Assembly (NCBI GenBank): GCA_019634025.1
Contig: JAHQWC010000029.1
Coordinates: forward strand, 1-52,336
From: Vampirovibrio sp.
GTDB taxonomy: Bacteria; Cyanobacteriota; Vampirovibrionia; Vampirovibrionales; Vampirovibrionaceae
Direction: 5' to 3'
Length of the DNA: 52,336 nucleotides
Made by a program: the position numbers and the translations under genes. The stretch's first letter is position 1. Each line of letters starts with the position of its first letter. Positions 12,432 through 22,174 of the stretch are shown piece by piece. The notes under the pieces were generated by a model that did no database searches, was not told where the DNA came from, and worked only from the letters and a program-made list of their open reading frames with translations.

Positions 12432-13910
12432 CTAGCCGAAGGGGAATTTGCCGCCGCCGGGGAGTTTACCACCTGGGAAGCCGCCGGGGAGGCCGCCCAT
12501 ACCGGGAGGCATGCCGCCGAATTGGGACATGTCGGGCTGTTTGTTTTTGCGTTTTTTGTTCTTTTTAGGCATATGCAACCCACCAGGGAGTTTGCCTTTT
12601 TTGGCATCATCGCCCATTTTGGTGAACTGCTTCATCATCATTTTCATTTGGTTAAACTGTTTCAGGAATTTGGAAATGTCTTCGGTTTTCATGCCGCACC
12701 CCTGGGCGATGCGTTGGCGGCGGCTGTTGTCGATGGAATCGGGGTTTTGGCGCTCGTAGGCCGTCATGGAGCTGACCATGGCTTCGATTTTTTTGAGTTC
12801 TTTTTCGCCGCCGTGGGCGATCATTTCTTTCATCTCTTTATTGAGGCCGGGAATAGGAAGCATGCCCAGGACTTGATCCAGGGAGCCCAGCATCTTCATT
12901 TGTTTTTGGATTTTCATGAAGTCTTCTAGGGAGAAGCTTTGCTTGCGCATCTTCTCTTCCATAGCCTTGGCTTCATCCAGGTCAATCGCCTCTTGGGCTT
13001 TTTCCACCAGGCTGAGGACATCGCCCATGCCTAAGATTCGGGAGGCCAGGCGCTCGGGGTGGAAGGCTTCCAGGCCATCTGGTTTTTCGCTGACGCCGAT
13101 GAATTTGATGGGTTTGCCGGTGACCTCGACGACAGAGATGGCGGCGCCGCCTCGGGCATCGCCGTCGAGTTTGGTCATGACGATGCCGGTGACGTCTAGC
13201 TGGGTGTTGAAGGTTTCGGCAACATTGACAGCTTCCTGGCCGGTCATGGAATCGATGACCAGGAGTTTCTCTTGGGGTTTGAGCATGCGTTCGACCATGA
13301 GGAGTTCGGCCATCATGTCGGTATCGATTTGCAGGCGGCCGGCGGTGTCAATGATGAGGGTGTTGTGGCCGTCTGCTTTGGCTTTGTCTAATCCGGATTG
13401 GGCAATGTGGAGGACGTCGGTGGAGCCTTCGACGGTGTGGACGGGGATGTCTACTTGTTTGCCCAGGGAGATGAGCTGGTTGATGGCGGCGGGGCGGTAG
13501 ACGTCTGCAGCGACCAGCAGGGGACTGCGACCCTGTTTGCGGAGTTTGAGAGCGAGTTTACCGGCGGTGGTAGTTTTACCCGAGCCCTGGAGACCGAAGA
13601 GGACGATGATGTTGGGGTGGCCGTCGAGATTGAGGGGTTTGTTTTCGGCCCCGAGGAGCTGGACGAGTTCTTCGTGAACGATTTTGACCAGTTGCTGGCC
13701 GGGCTGGACGTTTTTGAGGACCTCTTCGCCGTCGGCGCGATCTTTGACCCGGGAGATAAAGGCTTTAATGACCCGGAGGCTGACGTCGGCTTCCAGCAAC
13801 GCCCGGCGAACTTCGCGCAGGGCGTCTGACATATTGTCTTGGGTAAGTTGTTTGCCGCCTTTAAGGTTGGAGAAGGCTCCCTGAAGGCGTTCTGAGAGTT
13901 GATCGAACAT
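12432..13910 (-). CDS. ffh: Signal recognition particle protein Ffh
   Basis: N domain 'LSERLQGAFSNLKG', GTPase 'GLQGSGKTTTAGKLA', 'DTAGRL', 'TKLDGDARGGAA', Met-rich M domain, and a Gly/Pro/Lys-rich C-terminal tail. Confidence 0.97.
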   Translation of the reverse strand: MFDQLSERLQGAFSNLKGGKQLTQDNMSDALREVRRALLEADVSLRVIKAFISRVKDRADGEEVLKNVQPGQQLVKIVHEELVQLLGAENKPLNLDGHPNIIVLFGLQGSGKTTTAGKLALKLRKQGRSPLLVAADVYRPAAINQLISLGKQVDIPVHTVEGSTDVLHIAQSGLDKAKADGHNTLIIDTAGRLQIDTDMMAELLMVERMLKPQEKLLVIDSMTGQEAVNVAETFNTQLDVTGIVMTKLDGDARGGAAISVVEVTGKPIKFIGVSEKPDGLEAFHPERLASRILGMGDVLSLVEKAQEAIDLDEAKAMEEKMRKQSFSLEDFMKIQKQMKMLGSLDQVLGMLPIPGLNKEMKEMIAHGGEKELKKIEAMVSSMTAYERQNPDSIDNSRRQRIAQGCGMKTEDISKFLKQFNQMKMMMKQFTKMGDDAKKGKLPGGLHMPKKNKKRKNKQPDMSQFGGMPPGMGGLPGGFPGGKLPGGGKFPFG

Positions 13911-14124
13911 CTGGGCCGGTTCCGGGTTATGGGTTTACGTGTTTACCTTCGTACAAACCGGGGGGGATGACAAGGGATGTGGTAGGTTGTTACGGGAGTT
14001 GGTATTGAATTTGGCTCCAAAATACAGAGTGGTTTTTTGCTGTATTTAGTAAAGTGATGGGGAAGAGTGACTGTCAAATCCTTCAAGTGTGAAAAACTCG
14101 TCACGCTACTCCTTTAAAATTTAC

Positions 14125-14154
14125 TTGATTAATTAGGATAGGTTGGATTATTCT
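14125..14154 (+). promoter_or_regulatory. Candidate sigma70-like promoter for the island operon (TTGATT-18 nt-TATTCT)
   Basis: Hexamers read directly, about 45 nt upstream of the 60-aa ORF. Weak -10, and the AT-rich context gives many look-alikes. Confidence 0.25.
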
Positions 14155-14199
14155 TAAATGCCTTTATCAGGTATGGTCCAAGTTTAAAGAAGATAATTC

Positions 14200-14382
14200 A
14201 TGGATATTTCTAAATTAAGTCATTCTAAATATGTTTCAAAGATTGAGAAGACTAATCAGTTTTACCAATTAACTGCAAAATTTGCTGCCCAAACACAAAA
14301 CACTAAGTTTTATAATAAAGATAATACAAATGATTTTATCGATTTCGATTCAATGAAGACGGGTATCGAGGGTTTAGGTTAG
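14200..14382 (+). CDS. Candidate graspetide (microviridin-like) precursor peptide, 60 aa
   Basis: MDISKLSHSKYVSKIEKTNQFYQLTAKFAAQTQNTKFYNKDNTNDFIDFDSMKTGIEGLG. The N-terminal half is helical and F/Y-containing (leader-like). The C-terminal half is rich in Thr/Ser/Lys and Asp/Glu. First gene of the AT-rich island, co-directional with the ATP-grasp gene. Confidence 0.5.
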   Translation: MDISKLSHSKYVSKIEKTNQFYQLTAKFAAQTQNTKFYNKDNTNDFIDFDSMKTGIEGLG

Positions 14383-14520
14383 TTTTTAATCAGTTTTCAG
14401 GCTTAGATAGTGCTCCTTGGATGAAGCCTAGTTTGCTGATAGAGTGCTGCTTAAATATCAGCACTAGCCGCACAAAACTCAAAAATGCTCTATTTAGACC
14501 CTAGTAAGGAATCAGGACTA

Positions 14521-15597
14521 ATGAAATTTGAGGTTTTTTCTGATCTAAAAGAAGTATCGATCGCTTCCTTATATGATTTAGATGAAGCTAGTATTAAAAG
14601 CTTAGGAGAACAGCTTTATAAATACGGTATCGTTAAGATAAAGCACGATATTGACAGCACGTTGTTAAACAGTTTTAGAGAAGTGGGGTTTTCATTACAT
14701 AAATTACCCTGTCAAGAAAAGGAGAAGCTGACATTTTGTCCTTACATAGGGGAATATACTAATGAATCAAGAGGGTATATTGCTTACGAAAAGTTACCTG
14801 AGTCACCGATAATAGACACTGATATAGAAACATATGTAAAACATAATATGTGGGTATTTTCAGGTGGCCCATTAAATTTATACCCATCTGAAAAACTACT
14901 TCCGTCTGCTAGAAGTATTATTAGAACCAGCCTTAATGAATTGAGACGCACCGGTAATATTATACGGGATTCCTTAATGATCTACTTTGGTGATGAGCAG
15001 AGAAGACTAGAACAAATAACTGCTGCGCAGTTTGATCAATTACATATCCTTTCATTGGAATCTCATAAAGGAATAGATCCTAATAGCTCTAAATTAGATA
15101 AATATTTTCTGCGATTACCAAGCCACAAAGACGTTTACACATTATTTAAGTTGTTGTTGAGTAATCCTATTGGCGGTTTGCAAATTAAGCCTTTAACAGA
15201 AGAAAGGCAAGAGGCAGAAAATTGGTATACCCTTGAAGAGGATGGAGAAGGTTTAGATTATTTCTTTGTTTTCGCAGGAAATTACATGCCACTTTTAACA
15301 GGAAATACTATAAAATCTATTCAGCACAGAGTTATTGGCAATCAAACACAGATGCAAAAAGACCGTTTATCTATTGCTTATGCTTACCGACTCAATATAT
15401 TTGAGCCTTGGGTAAATTTTATCACCGGCCAAATGATAGAGTTTGAAGGGAAGGAGTTGTCTCCGGGGGCATGGTCGCATGTTCTTGGCAAGAATCCTAA
15501 AGCGACCGAAGAAGATTTATACTTAAACCTTCAACAACGTTGGAAGGGATTAAAGAATTTGCACAGCTACGTTAACACATTAGAATCAAGTACCTAA
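14521..15597 (+). CDS. 2-oxoglutarate/Fe(II)-dependent oxygenase (IPNS/2OG-FeII_Oxy superfamily)
   Basis: Facial triad context 'LPSHKDVYTLFKLLL...GGLQIK' (H-x-D), then 'IQHRVIG' (distal His) and 'DRLSIAYAYR' (2OG-binding Arg-x-Ser). Start placed at ATG 14521 (AAGGA 10 nt upstream); the ORF opens at 14485. Confidence 0.75.
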   Translation: MKFEVFSDLKEVSIASLYDLDEASIKSLGEQLYKYGIVKIKHDIDSTLLNSFREVGFSLHKLPCQEKEKLTFCPYIGEYTNESRGYIAYEKLPESPIIDTDIETYVKHNMWVFSGGPLNLYPSEKLLPSARSIIRTSLNELRRTGNIIRDSLMIYFGDEQRRLEQITAAQFDQLHILSLESHKGIDPNSSKLDKYFLRLPSHKDVYTLFKLLLSNPIGGLQIKPLTEERQEAENWYTLEEDGEGLDYFFVFAGNYMPLLTGNTIKSIQHRVIGNQTQMQKDRLSIAYAYRLNIFEPWVNFITGQMIEFEGKELSPGAWSHVLGKNPKATEEDLYLNLQQRWKGLKNLHSYVNTLESST

Positions 15598-15624
15598 CTA
15601 ATGATAGGAATTATGTGTTGAGTA

Positions 15625-16707
15625 ATGACTGTTCTAATTCTTGCTCCTGACTGGGAGCCACATTATCAATATATTCAACCTATTCTTCTTAAGAGGAAGG
15701 TGGATTTTGTAAGGCTTTCAGGGGAATCATACCCAGAGTATTGTGCAGCATCATTTGAGCTTTCAGATAGCAGCTCAAATACTTATTTCCTGCAAGACGG
15801 TAAAAAGTTTTATTCGTCAGATATACTCTCTGTGTGGAATCCTTATCTGACCTCCTCTAAGCCCATTGATGTGAACGATCCTTATCATAAGAAGTCGTTA
15901 GAAAAAGAGTCTGATTATCTGTTGGACGCTTTATATAGAACGATGGATACAGCTGTTTGGGTGAATCATATTGAGGCGGATAAAAGAGCGAACAAACTAT
16001 GCCAATTGACACAGGCGAAAGAAGTTGGTTTTATAGTGCCGGATACCTATATTGGTAATGATGTGGAGCAAGCCAAAAACTTTATTTCAAAGCATTCAGA
16101 CTTGTGTATTAAAAATCTTGCTCTCCCCCATACAATGCGTTCAAAAAATCACTTTGAGAAATTCGTTAGCCATTATCGTTGGGTCAGAGATAGCTTTAAA
16201 AAGCAGAATAAAGTACCTTTATTCTGGTCATTAGAGGAATACTTAAATGCAAATAAGATAAAAGTACCCACAAAGCGAGTCGATCAAAAAACATTATTAG
16301 AAAACATTGATCTGTTGAGTTATTCCCCAGCTATTATTCAGGCTTATATTCCAAAGTTATATGAGTTGAGAGTGACGGTTGTTGGCAACAAGATTTTTCC
16401 TTGTGCGATCTATTCCCAAGAGCATGCTTCAACACAAGAAGACTGGCGGGTTTCTCAAGATGAGATTTCATTTAAACATATTTCTCTTCCTACTGAAATT
16501 GAAGAAAAGTGTTTTCATCTCATGAAAAAACTGAATCTTGAATTTGGCGCCATCGATATGATTGTGACCCCTGAAAAAGAATATTATTTCCTGGAAGTCA
16601 ATACAACGCATGTGGGTTGGGGATATATTGATCATAGAGCCAGCTTGAACATTGGCGAAGCGTTGGTTGATTTGCTGGCCTGCCCTGATGGGAATAAATT
16701 GAACTGA
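15625..16707 (+). CDS. MvdC/MvdD-family ATP-grasp peptide ligase (graspetide maturase)
   Basis: 'MTVLILAPD', 'ILSVWNP', 'ANKLCQLTQAKEVGFIVPDTYIGN', 'YELRVTVVGNKIFPCAIYSQEHASTQEDWR' and 'LNLEFGAIDMIVTPEKEYYFLEVN' parallel the blocks I recall from microviridin ligases MvdD/MdnC. Confidence 0.8.
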   Translation: MTVLILAPDWEPHYQYIQPILLKRKVDFVRLSGESYPEYCAASFELSDSSSNTYFLQDGKKFYSSDILSVWNPYLTSSKPIDVNDPYHKKSLEKESDYLLDALYRTMDTAVWVNHIEADKRANKLCQLTQAKEVGFIVPDTYIGNDVEQAKNFISKHSDLCIKNLALPHTMRSKNHFEKFVSHYRWVRDSFKKQNKVPLFWSLEEYLNANKIKVPTKRVDQKTLLENIDLLSYSPAIIQAYIPKLYELRVTVVGNKIFPCAIYSQEHASTQEDWRVSQDEISFKHISLPTEIEEKCFHLMKKLNLEFGAIDMIVTPEKEYYFLEVNTTHVGWGYIDHRASLNIGEALVDLLACPDGNKLN

Positions 16708-16744
16708 AATAATTAACCTCTGTTGCTGATAGTTACCCAATTTT

Positions 16745-16861
16745 TGTCATTCCCGCGAAGGCGGGAATCCATTCTGCGGAATCGTGAAGAAGCTTTACCC
16801 GGTAGCACCGAAAGATAATGGCAAGTGCTACCAATGGATTCCCGCCTTCGCGGGAATGACA
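16745..16861. mobile_element. 117-bp MITE-like element with perfect 28-bp terminal inverted repeats
   Basis: Left TIR TGTCATTCCCGCGAAGGCGGGAATCCAT (16745-16772) is the exact reverse complement of 16834-16861. Each TIR contains the palindrome ATTCCCGC-GAAG-GCGGGAAT. There is an internal 8-bp stem GGTAGCAC/GTGCTACC. No transposase. Confidence 0.85.
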
Positions 16862-16994: not shown

Positions 16995-17513
16995 ATGAAC
17001 GCCCATCATCTCAGCGAAAAGCAGCAAAAAGCCGTCCGGCTCCTCAGCCGACCAGAAGATTATAAACTCACCCACCAGCAGGTCGCCAAAACCGTCGGCG
17101 TCGATCGCCGCACACTCTTTACCTGGAGAAGAAAGCCCGAATTCCAGCAAGCCATGCGCCTCGCCGCACAAGCCGCCATGCCCCTGGTCATGCAAGATAT
17201 CCACCGCAACCTCTGCGGTCAGGCCGTTCAGGGCGATCTCCAGGCCATTCGCCTGGTCCTCAAACTCTACGGCCAGCTGGATAAACACATGGAGGGTAAC
17301 CTCTGGCCCTACCCCACCAAACAGCACACCGCCCAACCCGATCTCTCCGAACCGGATCCCACCGCCAAAAAAGAAGCCCTCATTCAGTCAGCCTTAGAAG
17401 AAGTCCTGTTTTTCTATGAAGATCAAGACAACCCGCCAAACCCAGTACCCACCCAATTTTCTCAAAGGCCAGTCTTTCAACCGGATCCCAAAGATCCCAA
17501 ATTAAAAATTTAA
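16995..17513 (+). CDS. Phage-type helix-turn-helix DNA-binding protein (terminase-small-subunit-like / phBC6A51-type HTH), likely a mobile-element remnant
   Basis: 'LSEKQQKAVRLLSRPEDYKLTHQQVAKTVGVDRRTLFTWRRKPEFQQAMR' matches the HTH layout common in phage small-terminase/HTH genes. Good SD (GAGGGGA). Pro-rich disordered tail. Confidence 0.5.
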   Translation: MNAHHLSEKQQKAVRLLSRPEDYKLTHQQVAKTVGVDRRTLFTWRRKPEFQQAMRLAAQAAMPLVMQDIHRNLCGQAVQGDLQAIRLVLKLYGQLDKHMEGNLWPYPTKQHTAQPDLSEPDPTAKKEALIQSALEEVLFFYEDQDNPPNPVPTQFSQRPVFQPDPKDPKLKI

Positions 17514-17818: not shown

Positions 17819-20800
17819 TTAATGCAGCAGGTTAAGAATTTTTTGCCACAGGGAATTATGTTGGTTTACCTCAGCCTCAGCAGGCTGAACAGCCAGTGCC
17901 GACGCAGTATTTTGGCGCGGGACAATCGGCGTAAATGTCGTTTTTGGCGGCGGCACGGTATCCTGTGGAGTAATGGTAGGGTTGCTAGATTGAGGCGTCG
18001 TTTGAACCTTAGACGCAACAGGCTTGGTGCCAATAATTTGGTGGGTGCGGGTGTCCATCACCGCCACAGAAGAACGGGCGCGGGTGGCAATGAAGAGTTG
18101 GTTGTTTTGAGCATCCAACGCCAAACCATAAGGATTGCCGGGCAGAGGGGTGGTTTTATTGACTTGGAGGGTTTGGGTATTAAAGGTAGTAATGGTGTTT
18201 TCCAGGAAGTTGGCAACGTAGGCGGTGTGGGTAGATTCATCGATGACGATACCGCGAGGGCCCGCACCGGTGGGAATGGTGCCGACAACTTTGTCGGTGG
18301 CAGGATCAATGACCGTCACGCCGTCAGCGCCGTAGGTGGTAACAAACAAGTAACCGGCAGATTCATCAAAAGCCGCCTGGACGGGCTTGGCGCCGACGTC
18401 GATGGTATTGATGACTTTACGGGTGGTGGTGTCAATGATAGAGACGGAGTTGCTACCAAAATTAGCCGTGTAGGCTTTGGTGCCTTGGACGTTAACCACA
18501 ATGTTTTTAGGCCGTTGGCCCACGTTAATTTCGTCCAGGATGTCGTAGGTGGTGGCATCAACCACGCTGACGGTGTGGTTATTGGTGTTAGCAACATAGA
18601 GACGATTGGTGGGTCGGTGCAGGGTAGTGCTGGTAGGGCCTCGGCCAGGGCCAAGGGGAATGGTAGCAACGACCTGCTGGGTGTTGGGGTTAATGACCGT
18701 GACGGTATCGCCATAGGTATGGCTGACGTAGGCAACGTTGCCGGTGTCAGTACTAGCCAACTGGAAACCACCGTTTTGGTAAGCGATAGTGGGGAAATGG
18801 TTGGTAAGGGTATTAGACACCGGGACAAAGCCGGGCTCTTGAGGGAGCTGGTGGGCGATTTGGGTGGTGTCGATATGGGCAAAGTTGTAATCATACTGCT
18901 GAAGCTGTTGGGTTGGTTCGGCTTGTTGAACAAGGCTGTTGTCCCCTTCGGGGAGCTGCTGAAGCGGAGAGGGGTCAAACCCGTTATCAGGGTTGGGCAA
19001 AGTAGTAAGGGTCAAGGTGCCATTACCATCCACAGCCACAGCGCCGTCTTGAACAATACCGCCGCTGACGCCAGCGACATTAGCAGTAATGGCGATCTCG
19101 GCGCCATCACCAAAAATGGCGCCGGTATTCACAGAATTACCCGCATTAATGGTGAGGTTTTTGGCCGTCACCCACTGAGGACCGTTGGTCAGAGTGGCAG
19201 TATTGGTGTTACCGGAAAGATCTGCAGTGGTAGCGCCGGCGCCTTCGCCAAAGTTCCAGCCACCAGCCAGATTCGTCTCAGGTCCGGTCACAACCGTGCC
19301 TTGACCACTGTTATAGCTCGCTTGAACCTGTGCGGTAGACAAATCGGTATTGTAAATCCTAACTTCATCCATATACCCGTGGAGGTTTTGACCACCACAA
19401 CACTGCCGGGCGCCAATGCGAAGGTCGTTGGCCGTGCTAAGAATATTGCCGGTTTCAGCACCCGCCGGAGCAATGGTTTCCAGCAATGTACCGTTTTGGT
19501 AGAACGTCCAATTTGTCCCGTCATACACAAAAGCCGCATGCACCCAGTCGCTGGCGGTTTTAGCCTGGGTGCCGCCCCAAGACCAACTTCCACCCGATAC
19601 CGTATCTACTGCAGCTTGGTAGAGGTTGCCATTAACAGCATATTCATAGACACCCTCTTTGTTGACGATCATCTCGGACGTGTTAGTAAGGAGATTGATC
19701 CAGGCTTCAATGGTCATGGTGTCGTTGGTGATATCGAGACTGGGAGAATTGAGAGCTATCAGATGATCGTTGCCGCCGTCAAAGAAAAGCGCGTCACGGC
19801 CCAGAAAGACGGACTGGCCAGTAGCAATATAGTTGCCATTGGTGTTGAACGTAAGATTATAAATGCCGGCTGCACCAACCTGACCGGTGAGATCAATATC
19901 GCCGATAAGGGTGATATCGTTATTGAGACTGGCGCTGCCAATGCTGACGGTGTTGGCCGTAATACGCCCCAGCTCTGCAGAGGAGACATCGAGACGAGTA
20001 CCGGCAACATCGTTATTATCCACAGCGCCAGAAACGGCAATGCCGGGGTCGCTTGTAGAGGGAAGGAGAGAAACGGTACCGGTGGTGCCAGCATCGATGG
20101 CGTTATTAATATCCACGGTGGCGCCGGTAAGGGAAATATCGCCACCATTTGAGGTAATCGTAGCGCCGACGGTAATGCCGCCAACATCGTCACTGCCGCC
20201 CGCACCGACACCGGATGCATCGGCAATAAGATTAATATCACCACCATTGGTAGTCAGGGCGGAGGTGATATCAATGTCGTTGCCTGCCCTGAGGGTGAGA
20301 GAATTACCCGCGGTAACGCCGTTGAGGGTCCAGGGGGTTTCTACAGAGATATCGTTGGAGGCTTCCAGTAAGACGTTGGCAAAGCCGTTGAAGCTGGAGG
20401 CGAGAAAGACGGATTCGCCGCCACTGTTATCGGCGTCGGTGTATGGCACCGTGGCGCTACCCGCCGGACCGGCGGCGCGGATACGAATGTCAGTAGGATC
20501 AATCAGGATAGTTCCATCGGCGCCGTTATTTGCCTGCCCGAAAGCAGTACCTGCAAACAGGACAGTATCCACAGCACTAAGTTCGATGAAGCCACCGTCG
20601 CCGGAGATATCACCACCTCGGGCATCCACCACGGCGTTTTGCTCAAAGGTGGTGTCGCCGTCAGACCAAACCAGAATCTCTCCACCACTGCTGTTTTCGC
20701 CATTACCTTTGGCCGAGGTGAGACTGCCTTCCCTTAAGGTTACCTGGTTGCTGGCGTTAATATCAATGAACCCACCGTCCACATCGGTCTTACCGTCTGC

Positions 20801-21679
20801 AATGAGGCGGCCCTGTTGTTCCACCACGTCGCCCTGAATGGTGATGCTGCCGTTTTTGTCGTTGATATGGGTGGCCTGGATAACGCCGTCTAAATTGACC
20901 ACCTGGGACAAGAGCTTGTCCTGAACCTTCTCGTGAAGTTGAGCTTGGAGGTTGATAGTATTGGCGGTAATGTCGCCGGTGTTGGTAATGGATTTTTGGA
21001 TCTGGGCGACCTCTTGCTGTAAGACTTCATCTACAGTGACATCCAGGATCACATTGTTTGCCAGATGGACCCGAACCTGATCACCCACAGCCAGATGAAT
21101 CTGGCCGTCTGGAGCGGTGAGGGATCCACCGTTGGTGACAGACTGACTGATGAGGGTGATAAAGCCACCCGGGGTGGTTTCGATGACGCCGTTGTTAAGG
21201 ATGGCAGCAGGTTGATCCGAGGGCTGAAGCGCATCTGTCGTAAATAGCCATGAGCCGTTTGGGTTACCGAGGTAATGTTGGTTTTGAATGGGGAGGGTAC
21301 TGGCCAAAAAGCCGCCGGTATTAACCTGAGCAGTGGCGGACAAGGTGATGCCTGCAGGGTTAACCAAAAGCACCTGACCATTGCTGTTGAGGGCACCACT
21401 GATGAGACTGTTGCCACCGAGGACTTGGTTGAGGATGCTGGAGGTGGTGTTGGGCAGGAAGAAATTAACGGTTTCGCTGGCGCCCACGTTGAAGGTTTGG
21501 TAATTGACGATGGCCTGGTTGGATTTGGAGGTAACGTTGAGCACCGAGCCGGCTTCTTGAATGTGGACATCGCCAGAGACGACCTGCCATCCGGCAGGCA
21601 GGGCATAGGCACTGTGGGTATGAGCCGACAACACACTGAGCAAACCCAGGAGAACCTGAACCACAAATGCTTTTTGCAT
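17819..21679 (-). CDS. Large secreted TPS-domain (filamentous-haemagglutinin N-terminal domain) exoprotein with beta-helix repeats, a LamG/ConA-like domain and a C-terminal YVTN-type beta-propeller
   Basis: Signal peptide 'MQKAFVVQVLLGLLSVLSAHTHSAYA' (start 21679; the ORF track extends to 21832). TPS block 'SNQAIVNYQTFNVGASETVNFFLPNTTSSILNQVLGGNSLISGALNSNGQVLLVNPAGI'. LamG-like 'ALFFDGGNDHLI...MTIEAWINL...MDEVRIYN'. About seven 'YV.N...N.VSVID..T..V' blades. Confidence 0.85.
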   Translation of the reverse strand: MQKAFVVQVLLGLLSVLSAHTHSAYALPAGWQVVSGDVHIQEAGSVLNVTSKSNQAIVNYQTFNVGASETVNFFLPNTTSSILNQVLGGNSLISGALNSNGQVLLVNPAGITLSATAQVNTGGFLASTLPIQNQHYLGNPNGSWLFTTDALQPSDQPAAILNNGVIETTPGGFITLISQSVTNGGSLTAPDGQIHLAVGDQVRVHLANNVILDVTVDEVLQQEVAQIQKSITNTGDITANTINLQAQLHEKVQDKLLSQVVNLDGVIQATHINDKNGSITIQGDVVEQQGRLIADGKTDVDGGFIDINASNQVTLREGSLTSAKGNGENSSGGEILVWSDGDTTFEQNAVVDARGGDISGDGGFIELSAVDTVLFAGTAFGQANNGADGTILIDPTDIRIRAAGPAGSATVPYTDADNSGGESVFLASSFNGFANVLLEASNDISVETPWTLNGVTAGNSLTLRAGNDIDITSALTTNGGDINLIADASGVGAGGSDDVGGITVGATITSNGGDISLTGATVDINNAIDAGTTGTVSLLPSTSDPGIAVSGAVDNNDVAGTRLDVSSAELGRITANTVSIGSASLNNDITLIGDIDLTGQVGAAGIYNLTFNTNGNYIATGQSVFLGRDALFFDGGNDHLIALNSPSLDITNDTMTIEAWINLLTNTSEMIVNKEGVYEYAVNGNLYQAAVDTVSGGSWSWGGTQAKTASDWVHAAFVYDGTNWTFYQNGTLLETIAPAGAETGNILSTANDLRIGARQCCGGQNLHGYMDEVRIYNTDLSTAQVQASYNSGQGTVVTGPETNLAGGWNFGEGAGATTADLSGNTNTATLTNGPQWVTAKNLTINAGNSVNTGAIFGDGAEIAITANVAGVSGGIVQDGAVAVDGNGTLTLTTLPNPDNGFDPSPLQQLPEGDNSLVQQAEPTQQLQQYDYNFAHIDTTQIAHQLPQEPGFVPVSNTLTNHFPTIAYQNGGFQLASTDTGNVAYVSHTYGDTVTVINPNTQQVVATIPLGPGRGPTSTTLHRPTNRLYVANTNNHTVSVVDATTYDILDEINVGQRPKNIVVNVQGTKAYTANFGSNSVSIIDTTTRKVINTIDVGAKPVQAAFDESAGYLFVTTYGADGVTVIDPATDKVVGTIPTGAGPRGIVIDESTHTAYVANFLENTITTFNTQTLQVNKTTPLPGNPYGLALDAQNNQLFIATRARSSVAVMDTRTHQIIGTKPVASKVQTTPQSSNPTITPQDTVPPPKTTFTPIVPRQNTASALAVQPAEAEVNQHNSLWQKILNLLH

Positions 21680-22174
21680 GACCCCGCACACGGAATTAAA
21701 CAGCCCAAAGAGCCGGGCAAGGCCCGGGACGAAATCTTCTTTGAGGACCGTCCAGGTAATGAGCCGGCCCCCGGAAAACAGCAAGAACCGATGGCAATTG
21801 CTGCCGCTGCGGATGAGTTTATGGTGTTGCAATGGATTTACCTCGGCAATTTGAGGTGTTCAGCATCTTCACGGCTAATTGAGTATCGGCAACCCATGTG
21901 GTGATTTCCATCGAAAGGACTAGATCTCCATAGAATGGAGGAGACAGATTAGGGTGACAGTTACCAACGAGAGTAACCCGTATTTTCAAACGCTTGTGTC
22001 GCTTGTATTTAGATGCGATTTGCGTAAACCGACGTCATGCATTACAATTGTCGTGTGAGTGAATCCAGCCAATAGGCTTTTGTTTAGGTTGAACCAACTT
22101 TTAGTCGCGTCGTCCTAAATTGACTGCGCAGACAATTGTGTGAACAAGTGTGAGAACACCGTGGAGGATGTGCC

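Follow-up and report, generated by a model that had tools for sequence, protein, structure and literature searches.

A putative graspetide precursor encoded upstream of an oxygenase gene and an ATP-grasp ligase gene in a low-GC island of Vampirovibrio sp.

Precursors of graspetides are hypervariable and fast-diverging, and unrelated precursors adjoin closely similar ATP-grasp ligases (PMC8939145). The general criteria for recognizing them, as given by Makarova et al. 2022, are a length of no more than 150 amino acids (aa), a position as first or second neighbour of the ATP-grasp gene, and the same operon direction (PMC8939145). About 50% of graspetide precursors have a Phhx(1,2)h leader motif among their first 30 residues, and about half have a GG-type leader/core cleavage motif (PMC8939145). 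Here, we analysed a 60-aa open reading frame (ORF) in a 52,336-nucleotide (nt) contig of Vampirovibrio sp. (JAHQWC010000029.1, assembly GCA_019634025.1), and this whole stretch is referred to below as the window. The ORF is encoded on the same strand as a graspetide-type ATP-grasp ligase gene, as its second neighbour upstream, with a gene for a 2-oxoglutarate (2OG)/Fe(II) oxygenase in between. We consider it fairly probable that the ORF encodes the precursor in a minimal three-gene graspetide cluster (precursor, oxygenase and ligase) that was acquired horizontally.

The microviridin clusters, in which the precursors are MdnA/MvdE, the esters are formed by MdnC/MvdD and the amide by MdnB/MvdC, have a Thr-Asp ester spacing of i/i+6. 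The window locus resembles them in having a small putative precursor gene upstream of an ATP-grasp ligase gene, a predicted helical and aromatic-rich leader that precedes a core offering Thr/Ser/Lys as donors and Asp/Glu as acceptors, T35 and D41 at i/i+6 spacing, and a ligase whose best matches among solved structures and NCBIfam models are microviridin enzymes. On the other hand, microviridin-style gene sets have two ATP-grasp ligases and usually a GNAT acetyltransferase, whereas the window island has one ligase, no acetyltransferase and, in addition, the oxygenase. Curated models of microviridin/marinostatin-type precursors exist as Inhibitor_I10 (PF12559) in Pfam and as the ATP-grasp target RiPP (peptide synthesized ribosomally and modified post-translationally) model in NCBIfam. 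When the 60-aa ORF was examined by hmmscan, nothing was found in Pfam-A at E<=0.1 or in NCBIfam at E<=1. The leader recognition motif of microviridins, PFFARFL (PMC8939145), is absent from the peptide, which has no prolines at all; the nearest strings are QFYQL (residues 20-24) and AKFAA (residues 26-30). The microviridin core expression TxKxPSDx(D/E)(D/E) had no match in the peptide either, as TKFYNKD is not followed by an acidic pair and has just T, Y and D in common with TxKYPSD. The peptide is therefore outside the microviridin precursor family. The original prediction, made from the sequence of this locus, had proposed a microviridin-like leader/core layout with TKFY...D..D..D.D as an analogous core. 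Of this proposal, the predicted helical N-terminus and the cross-linkable, donor/acceptor-rich C-terminus stand, but the specific likeness to microviridins does not, given the missing motifs, prolines, model match and second ligase.

Minimal clusters of candidate-phyla-radiation (CPR) bacteria and Melainabacteria, which correspond to branches 1-2 of the ATP-grasp enzymes in Makarova et al. 2022 and probably to the DUF6624-associated groups (e.g., group 42) of Carter et al. 2026, are similar to the window island in that they consist of a ligase gene and an adjacent ORF of 55-110 aa, and in that the ligase gene has a low GC content relative to its contig in several loci (L013 and L015). Unlike the window island, they have a recognisable precursor family, and DUF6624 in place of the oxygenase. 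The corallotide cluster (graspetide group 15) encodes the precursor CorA, the ligase CorB and the 2OG/Fe(II) oxygenase CorC, and its modified motif KxxxD first receives a lactam and then Lys delta-hydroxylation by CorC (PMC13097080). In this cluster, as in the window locus, a graspetide ligase is paired with a divergent 2OG/Fe(II) oxygenase for which homologues outside the cluster are few or absent, and the likeness extends in part to the peptide, which has one KxxxE (K53-E57), and to the MdnB-like ligase. However, CorC belongs to PF13640 and the window oxygenase to PF03171, CorA is a ~22 kDa protein with five repeats in contrast to the 60 residues of the window peptide, and the corallotide cluster includes a beta-lactamase-fold gene and is confined to Corallococcus. 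In the SmaA/SmaO/SmaX system (graspetide group 18), Asp beta-hydroxylation is followed by formation of aminomalonate (PMC12186529). This graspetide-type cluster is comparable to the window locus in that a 2OG/Fe(II) oxygenase hydroxylates an Asp of the precursor, but SmaO needs Asp-Gly (a DGDG motif) right after the GG site, whereas both DG and GG are missing from the window peptide, and the window island has neither an HD-domain partner enzyme nor a PCAT transporter.

Composition profiles identified the island that carries the 60-aa ORF as the sole low-GC segment of the window, with 32-40% GC compared with 44-58% elsewhere. Three genes, all in the plus direction, are arranged in the order of the 60-aa ORF, the oxygenase gene after 138 nt, and the ATP-grasp gene after a further 27 nt. 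The low-GC DNA begins ~200 nt upstream of the 60-aa ORF, suggesting that the ORF arrived together with the enzyme genes. The coordinates of all features are shown in Table 1.

The presence of the 60-aa ORF, with the coordinates and residues quoted in the original prediction, was confirmed, and it looks like a real gene on the grounds of its codon usage, a Shine-Dalgarno-like site, the helix-and-coil model of its product and a donor/acceptor-rich tail. Specifically, a codon model was trained on both island enzyme genes and compared with a null of random open frames with matching base composition. The log-likelihood of the 60-aa ORF was +12.4 bits, whereas that of random open frames was -1.9 +/- 5.0 bits, the fraction reaching the value of the ORF being 0.0015; when just one of the enzyme genes was used as the training set, p was 0.004-0.014. 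The score was equal to or higher than those of cross-validated windows of the true island genes, and the five other frames scored from -19 to -54. The Shine-Dalgarno-like AAGAAG equals the ribosome-binding sites of the enzyme genes in quality (e.g., AAGGAA before the oxygenase start). Five plus-strand ORFs of at least 20 aa are present in the 610-nt gap between the ffh gene and the oxygenase gene, among which the 60-aa ORF is the longest (the others have 23-36 aa) and the only one that combines a coding signal with cross-linkable residues.

We next describe the layout of the peptide. Residues 18-31 (TNQFYQLTAKFAAQ, 14251-14292) form an aromatic/hydrophobic segment inside the predicted leader, and the original prediction that this segment is probably helical agrees with a single-sequence AlphaFold2 model, in which it falls within one helix spanning residues 4-34 (block predicted local distance difference test (pLDDT) values of 77-88 over residues 11-30), followed by coil at residues 35-48. 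The predicted leader has a net charge of +3 and neither Pro nor GG, its sole small-residue doublet being A29-A30; in place of the Phhx(1,2)h motif, which is absent from the peptide, it has the Pro-less hhxh string F21-Y22-Q23-L24. In the predicted core, the donors are T35, K36, K40, T43, S51, K53 and T54 and the acceptors D41, D45, D48, D50 and E57, so that 12 of 23 residues (7 S/T/K and 5 D/E) are cross-linkable, with many donor-acceptor pairs 3-9 residues apart, and 5 of the 7 acidic residues of the peptide fall after residue 34. The C-terminal half is thus packed with donors and acceptors, as had been claimed, and, as in the cores of graspetide precursors, residues 35-57 place Thr/Ser/Lys donors within ring-forming distance of Asp/Glu acceptors. 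By context and layout, no peptide other than that of the 60-aa ORF is a credible substrate of the neighbouring graspetide-type ATP-grasp ligase.

Table 1. Features of the low-GC island and its right edge, in window coordinates.
Feature	Position	Strand	Details
60-aa ORF, putative graspetide precursor	14200..14382 (stop included)	+	ATG start; sequence MDISKLSHSKYVSKIEKTNQFYQLTAKFAAQTQNTKFYNKDNTNDFIDFDSMKTGIEGLG
Predicted leader, residues 4-34	14209..14301	+	one helix in AlphaFold2 single-sequence model; motif regular expressions
Predicted core, residues 35-57	14302..14370	+	TKFYNKDNTNDFIDFDSMKTGIE; composition; coil 35-48 in model
Shine-Dalgarno-like AAGAAG	14187..14192	+	7 nt before ATG at 14200; read from sequence
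2OG/Fe(II) oxygenase, 358 aa	14521..15597	+	Pfam PF03171; alternative ATG at 14485 gives 370 aa
Graspetide-type ATP-grasp ligase, 360 aa	15625..16707	+	NCBIfam, PDB and invariant-column evidence
Low-GC island	~14000..16745		three plus-strand genes, no more; composition profiles
7-bp hairpin, 9-nt loop	14443..14465	+	AGTGCTG 14443-14449 / CAGCACT 14459-14465; -8.7 kcal/mol
Inverted-repeat element, ~115 bp	16746..16860		25-nt inverted repeats GTCATTCCCGCGAAGGCGGGAATCC / GGATTCCCGCCTTCGCGGGAATGAC; right island edge

The sequence of the 360-aa protein identifies it as an ATP-grasp maturase of ribosomal peptides (graspetides) and not as an MvdC equivalog. Among NCBIfam models, it matched the MvdC family (E 4.5e-54), the SAV_5884 subfamily (8.8e-46), the MvdD family (2.4e-41) and the grasp-with-spasm family (5.3e-29), while falling far below the equivalog cut-offs of all four RiPP-maturase models (184 bits compared with the 425-bit cut-off for MvdC). 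Its matches in the PDB were MdnB (5IG8, 4.5e-31), AMdnB (8.4e-31), CdnC (2.4e-24) and MdnC (5IG9, 1.1e-22), named according to PMC10452190. The MvdD-type pre-ATP-grasp N-domain PF21068 gave 22.3 bits, just below its 27-bit cut-off. The ligase is of a long form with an insertion of ~40 residues, and it retains 15 of 15 invariant columns of a 28-sequence alignment (K124, K163, Q239, K244, E247, R249, D273, R275, D311, E324, N326 and others). Its nearest relative among 5.8e9 proteins has 36-38% identity. The amide-forming MdnB/MvdC type scored slightly above the ester-forming type, which hints at Lys-Asp/Glu lactams, for which the peptide has K36, K40, K53 and the KxxxE at 53-57; note that at this distance enzyme similarity is no predictor of linkage chemistry. 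As a detail of the ligase sequence, residues 326-333 (16600-16625) read E-V-N-T-T-H-V-G-W, with a one-residue insertion relative to E-(I/V)-N-P-N-G-Q-W, a motif that is otherwise strongly conserved near the C-terminus of this ligase family.

The oxygenase was assigned to PF03171 with E 5.5e-7 (30.3 bits, cut-off 23) and gave a weak DIOX_N signal. An iron triad, H202-K-D204 (from 15124) with H269 in IQHRV (15319-15333), and a 2OG-binding RxS motif, R282-L-S284 in RLSIAY (15364-15381), are intact, and they align to the motifs of plant 2OG-dependent dioxygenase (2-ODD) structures, which the enzyme matches with E ~0.03. No homologues were found among 5.8e9 proteins at E<=1e-5, a cut-off that hides matches between 1e-5 and 1e-3, and a single-sequence AlphaFold2 model had a pLDDT of 34. 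The original prediction had also named the Asn/Asp-rich stretch of the peptide as a plausible oxygenase substrate. This is reasonable by precedent, since 2OG/Fe(II) oxygenases in graspetide clusters carry out peptidyl-Asp beta-hydroxylation (PMC12186529) and Lys delta-hydroxylation (PMC13097080), but a PF03171 enzyme and a peptide without DG differ from these precedents.

The ligases nearest to that of the window were found in CPR bacteria, Melainabacteria/Vampirovibrionales and unbinned metagenomes, with 30-38% identity. The closest overall (P0003 in locus L001, 36-38% identity) is preceded at a distance of 68 nt by a 62-aa ORF, whose product ends in ...EFTTKSNGSNDSPDNN, and the closest in genomes (L013 in a Vampirovibrionales metagenome-assembled genome (MAG), 34% identity) has a 64-aa ORF ~60-100 nt upstream, ending in ...TYSNKEKQTTATETGGSIGQ. 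Given that these are the two closest long-form ligases (34-38% identity) and that both have an ORF of 62-64 aa directly upstream, the 60-aa ORF is probably a graspetide precursor. Small ORFs are also present upstream of the ligase in L015, L016 and L019, and in the CPR clade a conserved 55-70-aa ORF lies directly downstream of the ligase gene and is followed by DUF6624, these downstream ORFs being homologous to one another (E 1e-7 to 1e-20). The precursors of the related loci form a recognisable family, with the pattern LP[ILV]TFxFGE...TxFxGEESI..GGYDTD where they lie downstream of the ligase or P[VIL][TS]FG where they lie upstream. A precursor-sized ORF beside the ligase is the rule in related loci, and the 60-aa ORF lies upstream, where it would be expected, separated from the ligase gene by that of the oxygenase. 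Note that L009, L010 and L011, which carry close ligase homologues, are short contigs and gave no precursor information.

Some of the related loci had further features. In L019 (5052-5997, a Melainabacteria MAG), three tandem, divergent paralogous ORFs of 63, 81 and 107 aa each contain (L/K/Q)P(V/I/L)TFG, and the locus looks like a multi-precursor graspetide locus. The ligase genes of L013 (5965-7074, GC content 0.40 compared with 0.50) and L015 (6001-7050, 0.47 compared with 0.59) are ~10-12 GC points below their contigs, suggesting that the ligase clade moves as small AT-rich cassettes. In L012 (509-3956), the ligase homologue P0012 is accompanied by a 286-aa protein that overlaps its start and by an 82-aa ORF after it, and then by a multinuclear non-heme iron-dependent oxidative enzyme (MNIO; MbnB_TglH_ChrH, PF05114); this is apparently a hybrid, MNIO-containing cluster, different in kind.

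Several results weigh against the assignment of the 60-aa ORF as a graspetide precursor, and most of them favour its main rival, namely that the frame is open merely by chance within an AT-rich spacer and that the island is incomplete or decaying, its ligase having no precursor here or one outside the 52-kb window. The length of the ORF is by itself insignificant, because, when the 531-nt low-GC spacer was subjected to mononucleotide shuffling, 9.8% of the shuffles contained an ATG-initiated ORF of at least 60 aa in some frame (p ~0.1). No sigma-70-like promoter was called on the plus strand between ffh and the ORF, which is a weak negative. The peptide matched itself only in a word-indexed search of 5.8e9 clustered proteins, and phmmer against 1.84e9 representatives, which does not use a word index, retrieved the peptide itself and one 746-aa repeat protein (E 3.5e-4); the latter has four repeated 35-aa stretches, and we rejected it as a composition/repeat artefact. 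No relative of the peptide was found by degenerate-DNA scans of GTDB genomes and JGI metagenomes, tblastn searches of 92 related ATP-grasp loci (930 kb) with the peptide and the oxygenase had no hit at E<=1, and no homologous island was present in any collection searched. As the peptide has no homologues, there is no evolutionary evidence of purifying selection on it. Alignment to graspetide precursor families, which the original prediction had put forward as a check, failed to link the peptide to any of them: besides the absence of a precursor model match described above, hmmsearch --max with a profile built from the candidate precursors (12 in number) found in related loci against 434 small ORFs of the window gave a best E of 1.4 for any ORF, the 60-aa ORF was not among the top matches, and BLASTP of the peptide against the L001 peptide and the candidate precursors of the neighbours gave zero alignments. 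All 12 of these candidates have a Pro-hydrophobic leader motif (LP[ILV]TF.., P[VIL][TS]FG, PFAL or PFIC) that equals the Phhx(1,2)h signature of PMC8939145 and is missing from the peptide. The peptide also has no GG cleavage site, no protease or transporter gene is present in the island, and some ATP-grasp branches have no precursors findable near the ligase (PMC8939145). Against a chance frame, however, stand the island-like codon usage (p ~0.0015, even relative to open frames), the Shine-Dalgarno-like site at optimal spacing, and the low-GC DNA reaching ~200 nt upstream, so that the ORF came with the enzymes. A helix followed by an acidic, hydroxyl-rich tail is likewise unlikely by chance: random open frames matched in composition showed such a tail in 0.43% of cases (p ~0.004), and 23-aa windows taken from the island proteins in 1-2%, at thresholds picked post hoc, and the helix is that of a single-sequence model with a mean pLDDT of 67. 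Decay of the island is countered by the two enzyme genes, which are intact and keep all catalytic residues. We therefore regard a chance frame as unlikely.

Alternatively, the ORF may encode a real small protein that is not a substrate of the ligase, such as a partner or chaperone within the island, or a peptide with a regulatory or immunity role there. Partner-protein-dependent graspetide synthetases are known (rosaritide MirC; PMC13097080), small non-precursor proteins of the LPL family lie beside some ATP-grasp loci (PMC8939145), and about half of the peptide is modelled as one long helix. Yet the last 26 residues of the peptide form a disordered tail dense in just those residue types that graspetide ligases link, the ORFs of similar size in the same position in the relatives have similar tails, and no alternative substrate candidate exists in the island or the window: downstream of the ligase gene there is a repeat element and no other candidate, and no ORF elsewhere in the 52 kb resembles the precursors of the relatives. 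We give this explanation little credence. Even less credence is due to a small-molecule pathway of amino-acid or dipeptide ligation and hydroxylation, to which the upstream ORF would be irrelevant. PF03171/DIOX_N-type oxygenases act mostly on small molecules, sequence comparison with solved structures gives plant 2-ODDs as the best matches, and tables of proteins that co-occur with >20,000 predicted graspetide clusters do not list PF03171; however, the best matches of the ligase are all ribosomal-peptide maturases, the RimK, LysX and glutathione-synthase models score it far lower, and it shows the MvdD-type pre-ATP-grasp N-domain signal. Certain likenesses seen by eye, QFYQL to PFFGQL or PFAL and AKFAAQTQN to PKFGQKTHN, were without statistical support and were not used.

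For the ORF as a graspetide precursor, we infer its translation, leader binding, linked residues and oxygenase substrate as follows. The N-terminal part of ~34 residues would fold as an amphipathic helix, whose aromatic face (F21/Y22/L24/F28) may dock on the ligase as graspetide leaders do. The ligase, with ATP, would then activate Asp/Glu residues of the disordered C-terminal part (D41, D45, D48, D50 and E57), and the activated acids would close onto Thr/Ser hydroxyls or Lys amines (T35, K36, K40, T43, S51, K53 and T54), yielding at least one lactone or lactam ring. The oxygenase may hydroxylate one residue, not nameable from the sequence, before or after ring closure. More tentatively, and with doubt prevailing, the locus could represent a new graspetide group, in which a Pro-less and GG-less leader is read by a ligase that has diverged strongly (no more than 38% identical to any known protein) and scores closest to the amide-forming MdnB type, the core carries Lys-Asp/Glu lactams and/or Thr-Asp lactones, and an orphan PF03171 oxygenase of the isopenicillin N synthase (IPNS)/2-ODD type hydroxylates the peptide.

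If the peptide is made and modified, the locus would be a compact and easily expressed three-gene graspetide pathway, and the peptide would found its own precursor family within the known graspetide class, unrelated to any of the ~200 described precursor families. Its leader, which lacks the Pro-hydrophobic motif thought to activate such ligases, would point to a new mode of leader recognition, and PF03171, a 2OG oxygenase family not yet tied to graspetides, would contribute a new tailoring chemistry and a new peptide hydroxylase. The rules of genome-mining tools that rely on leader/core motifs, e.g., RODEO, would be widened. If the ORF is unused, the locus is an orphan pair of ligase and oxygenase. 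Either outcome has no bearing on microviridin biology itself.

We also examined the stem-loop that the original prediction had placed between the 60-aa ORF and the enzyme genes and had linked to over-expression of precursors. The hairpin exists as described, but the proposed role is not supported, as its occurrence is at chance level and it has no terminator features. Inverted repeats of at least 7 nt number 32 per 3.2 kb around it (~1 per 100 nt), and a rival pairing (14434-41 / 14456-63) overlaps it. No U-run follows it, a scan for terminator-like sites listed nothing there, and the whole 138-nt spacer folds no better than its shuffles (z = +1.28). A role as attenuator or terminator was rejected on account of the chance-level frequency, the missing U-tract and a spacer no more structured than its shuffles, and the hairpin is probably not a functional element. 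An Rfam scan of the whole window found zero RNA families.

The island is flanked on the left by ffh (12432-13910, minus strand) and on the right, directly, by a 172-aa ORF (16995-17513) with a transposase-type helix-turn-helix domain of the insertion-element/terminase type (PF13022, E 2.5e-17). The GC content of this ORF is host-like (57-58%), and the ORF could be left over from the vehicle by which the island arrived. The 25-nt repeats of the element at the right island edge are themselves palindromic, with the core ATTCCCGC-N4-GCGGGAAT; two copies are present compared with 0.04 expected, and none elsewhere in the window. The element resembles a miniature inverted-repeat transposable element or a repetitive extragenic palindromic (REP)-type repeat, and it yields spurious ORFs reading ...IPAFAGMT.... 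Further to the right, a 1337-aa ORF on the minus strand (17819-21832) is opposed by an antisense 776-aa ORF on the plus strand (17822-20152), which is most likely a shadow ORF of the GC-skewed, repetitive minus-strand gene.

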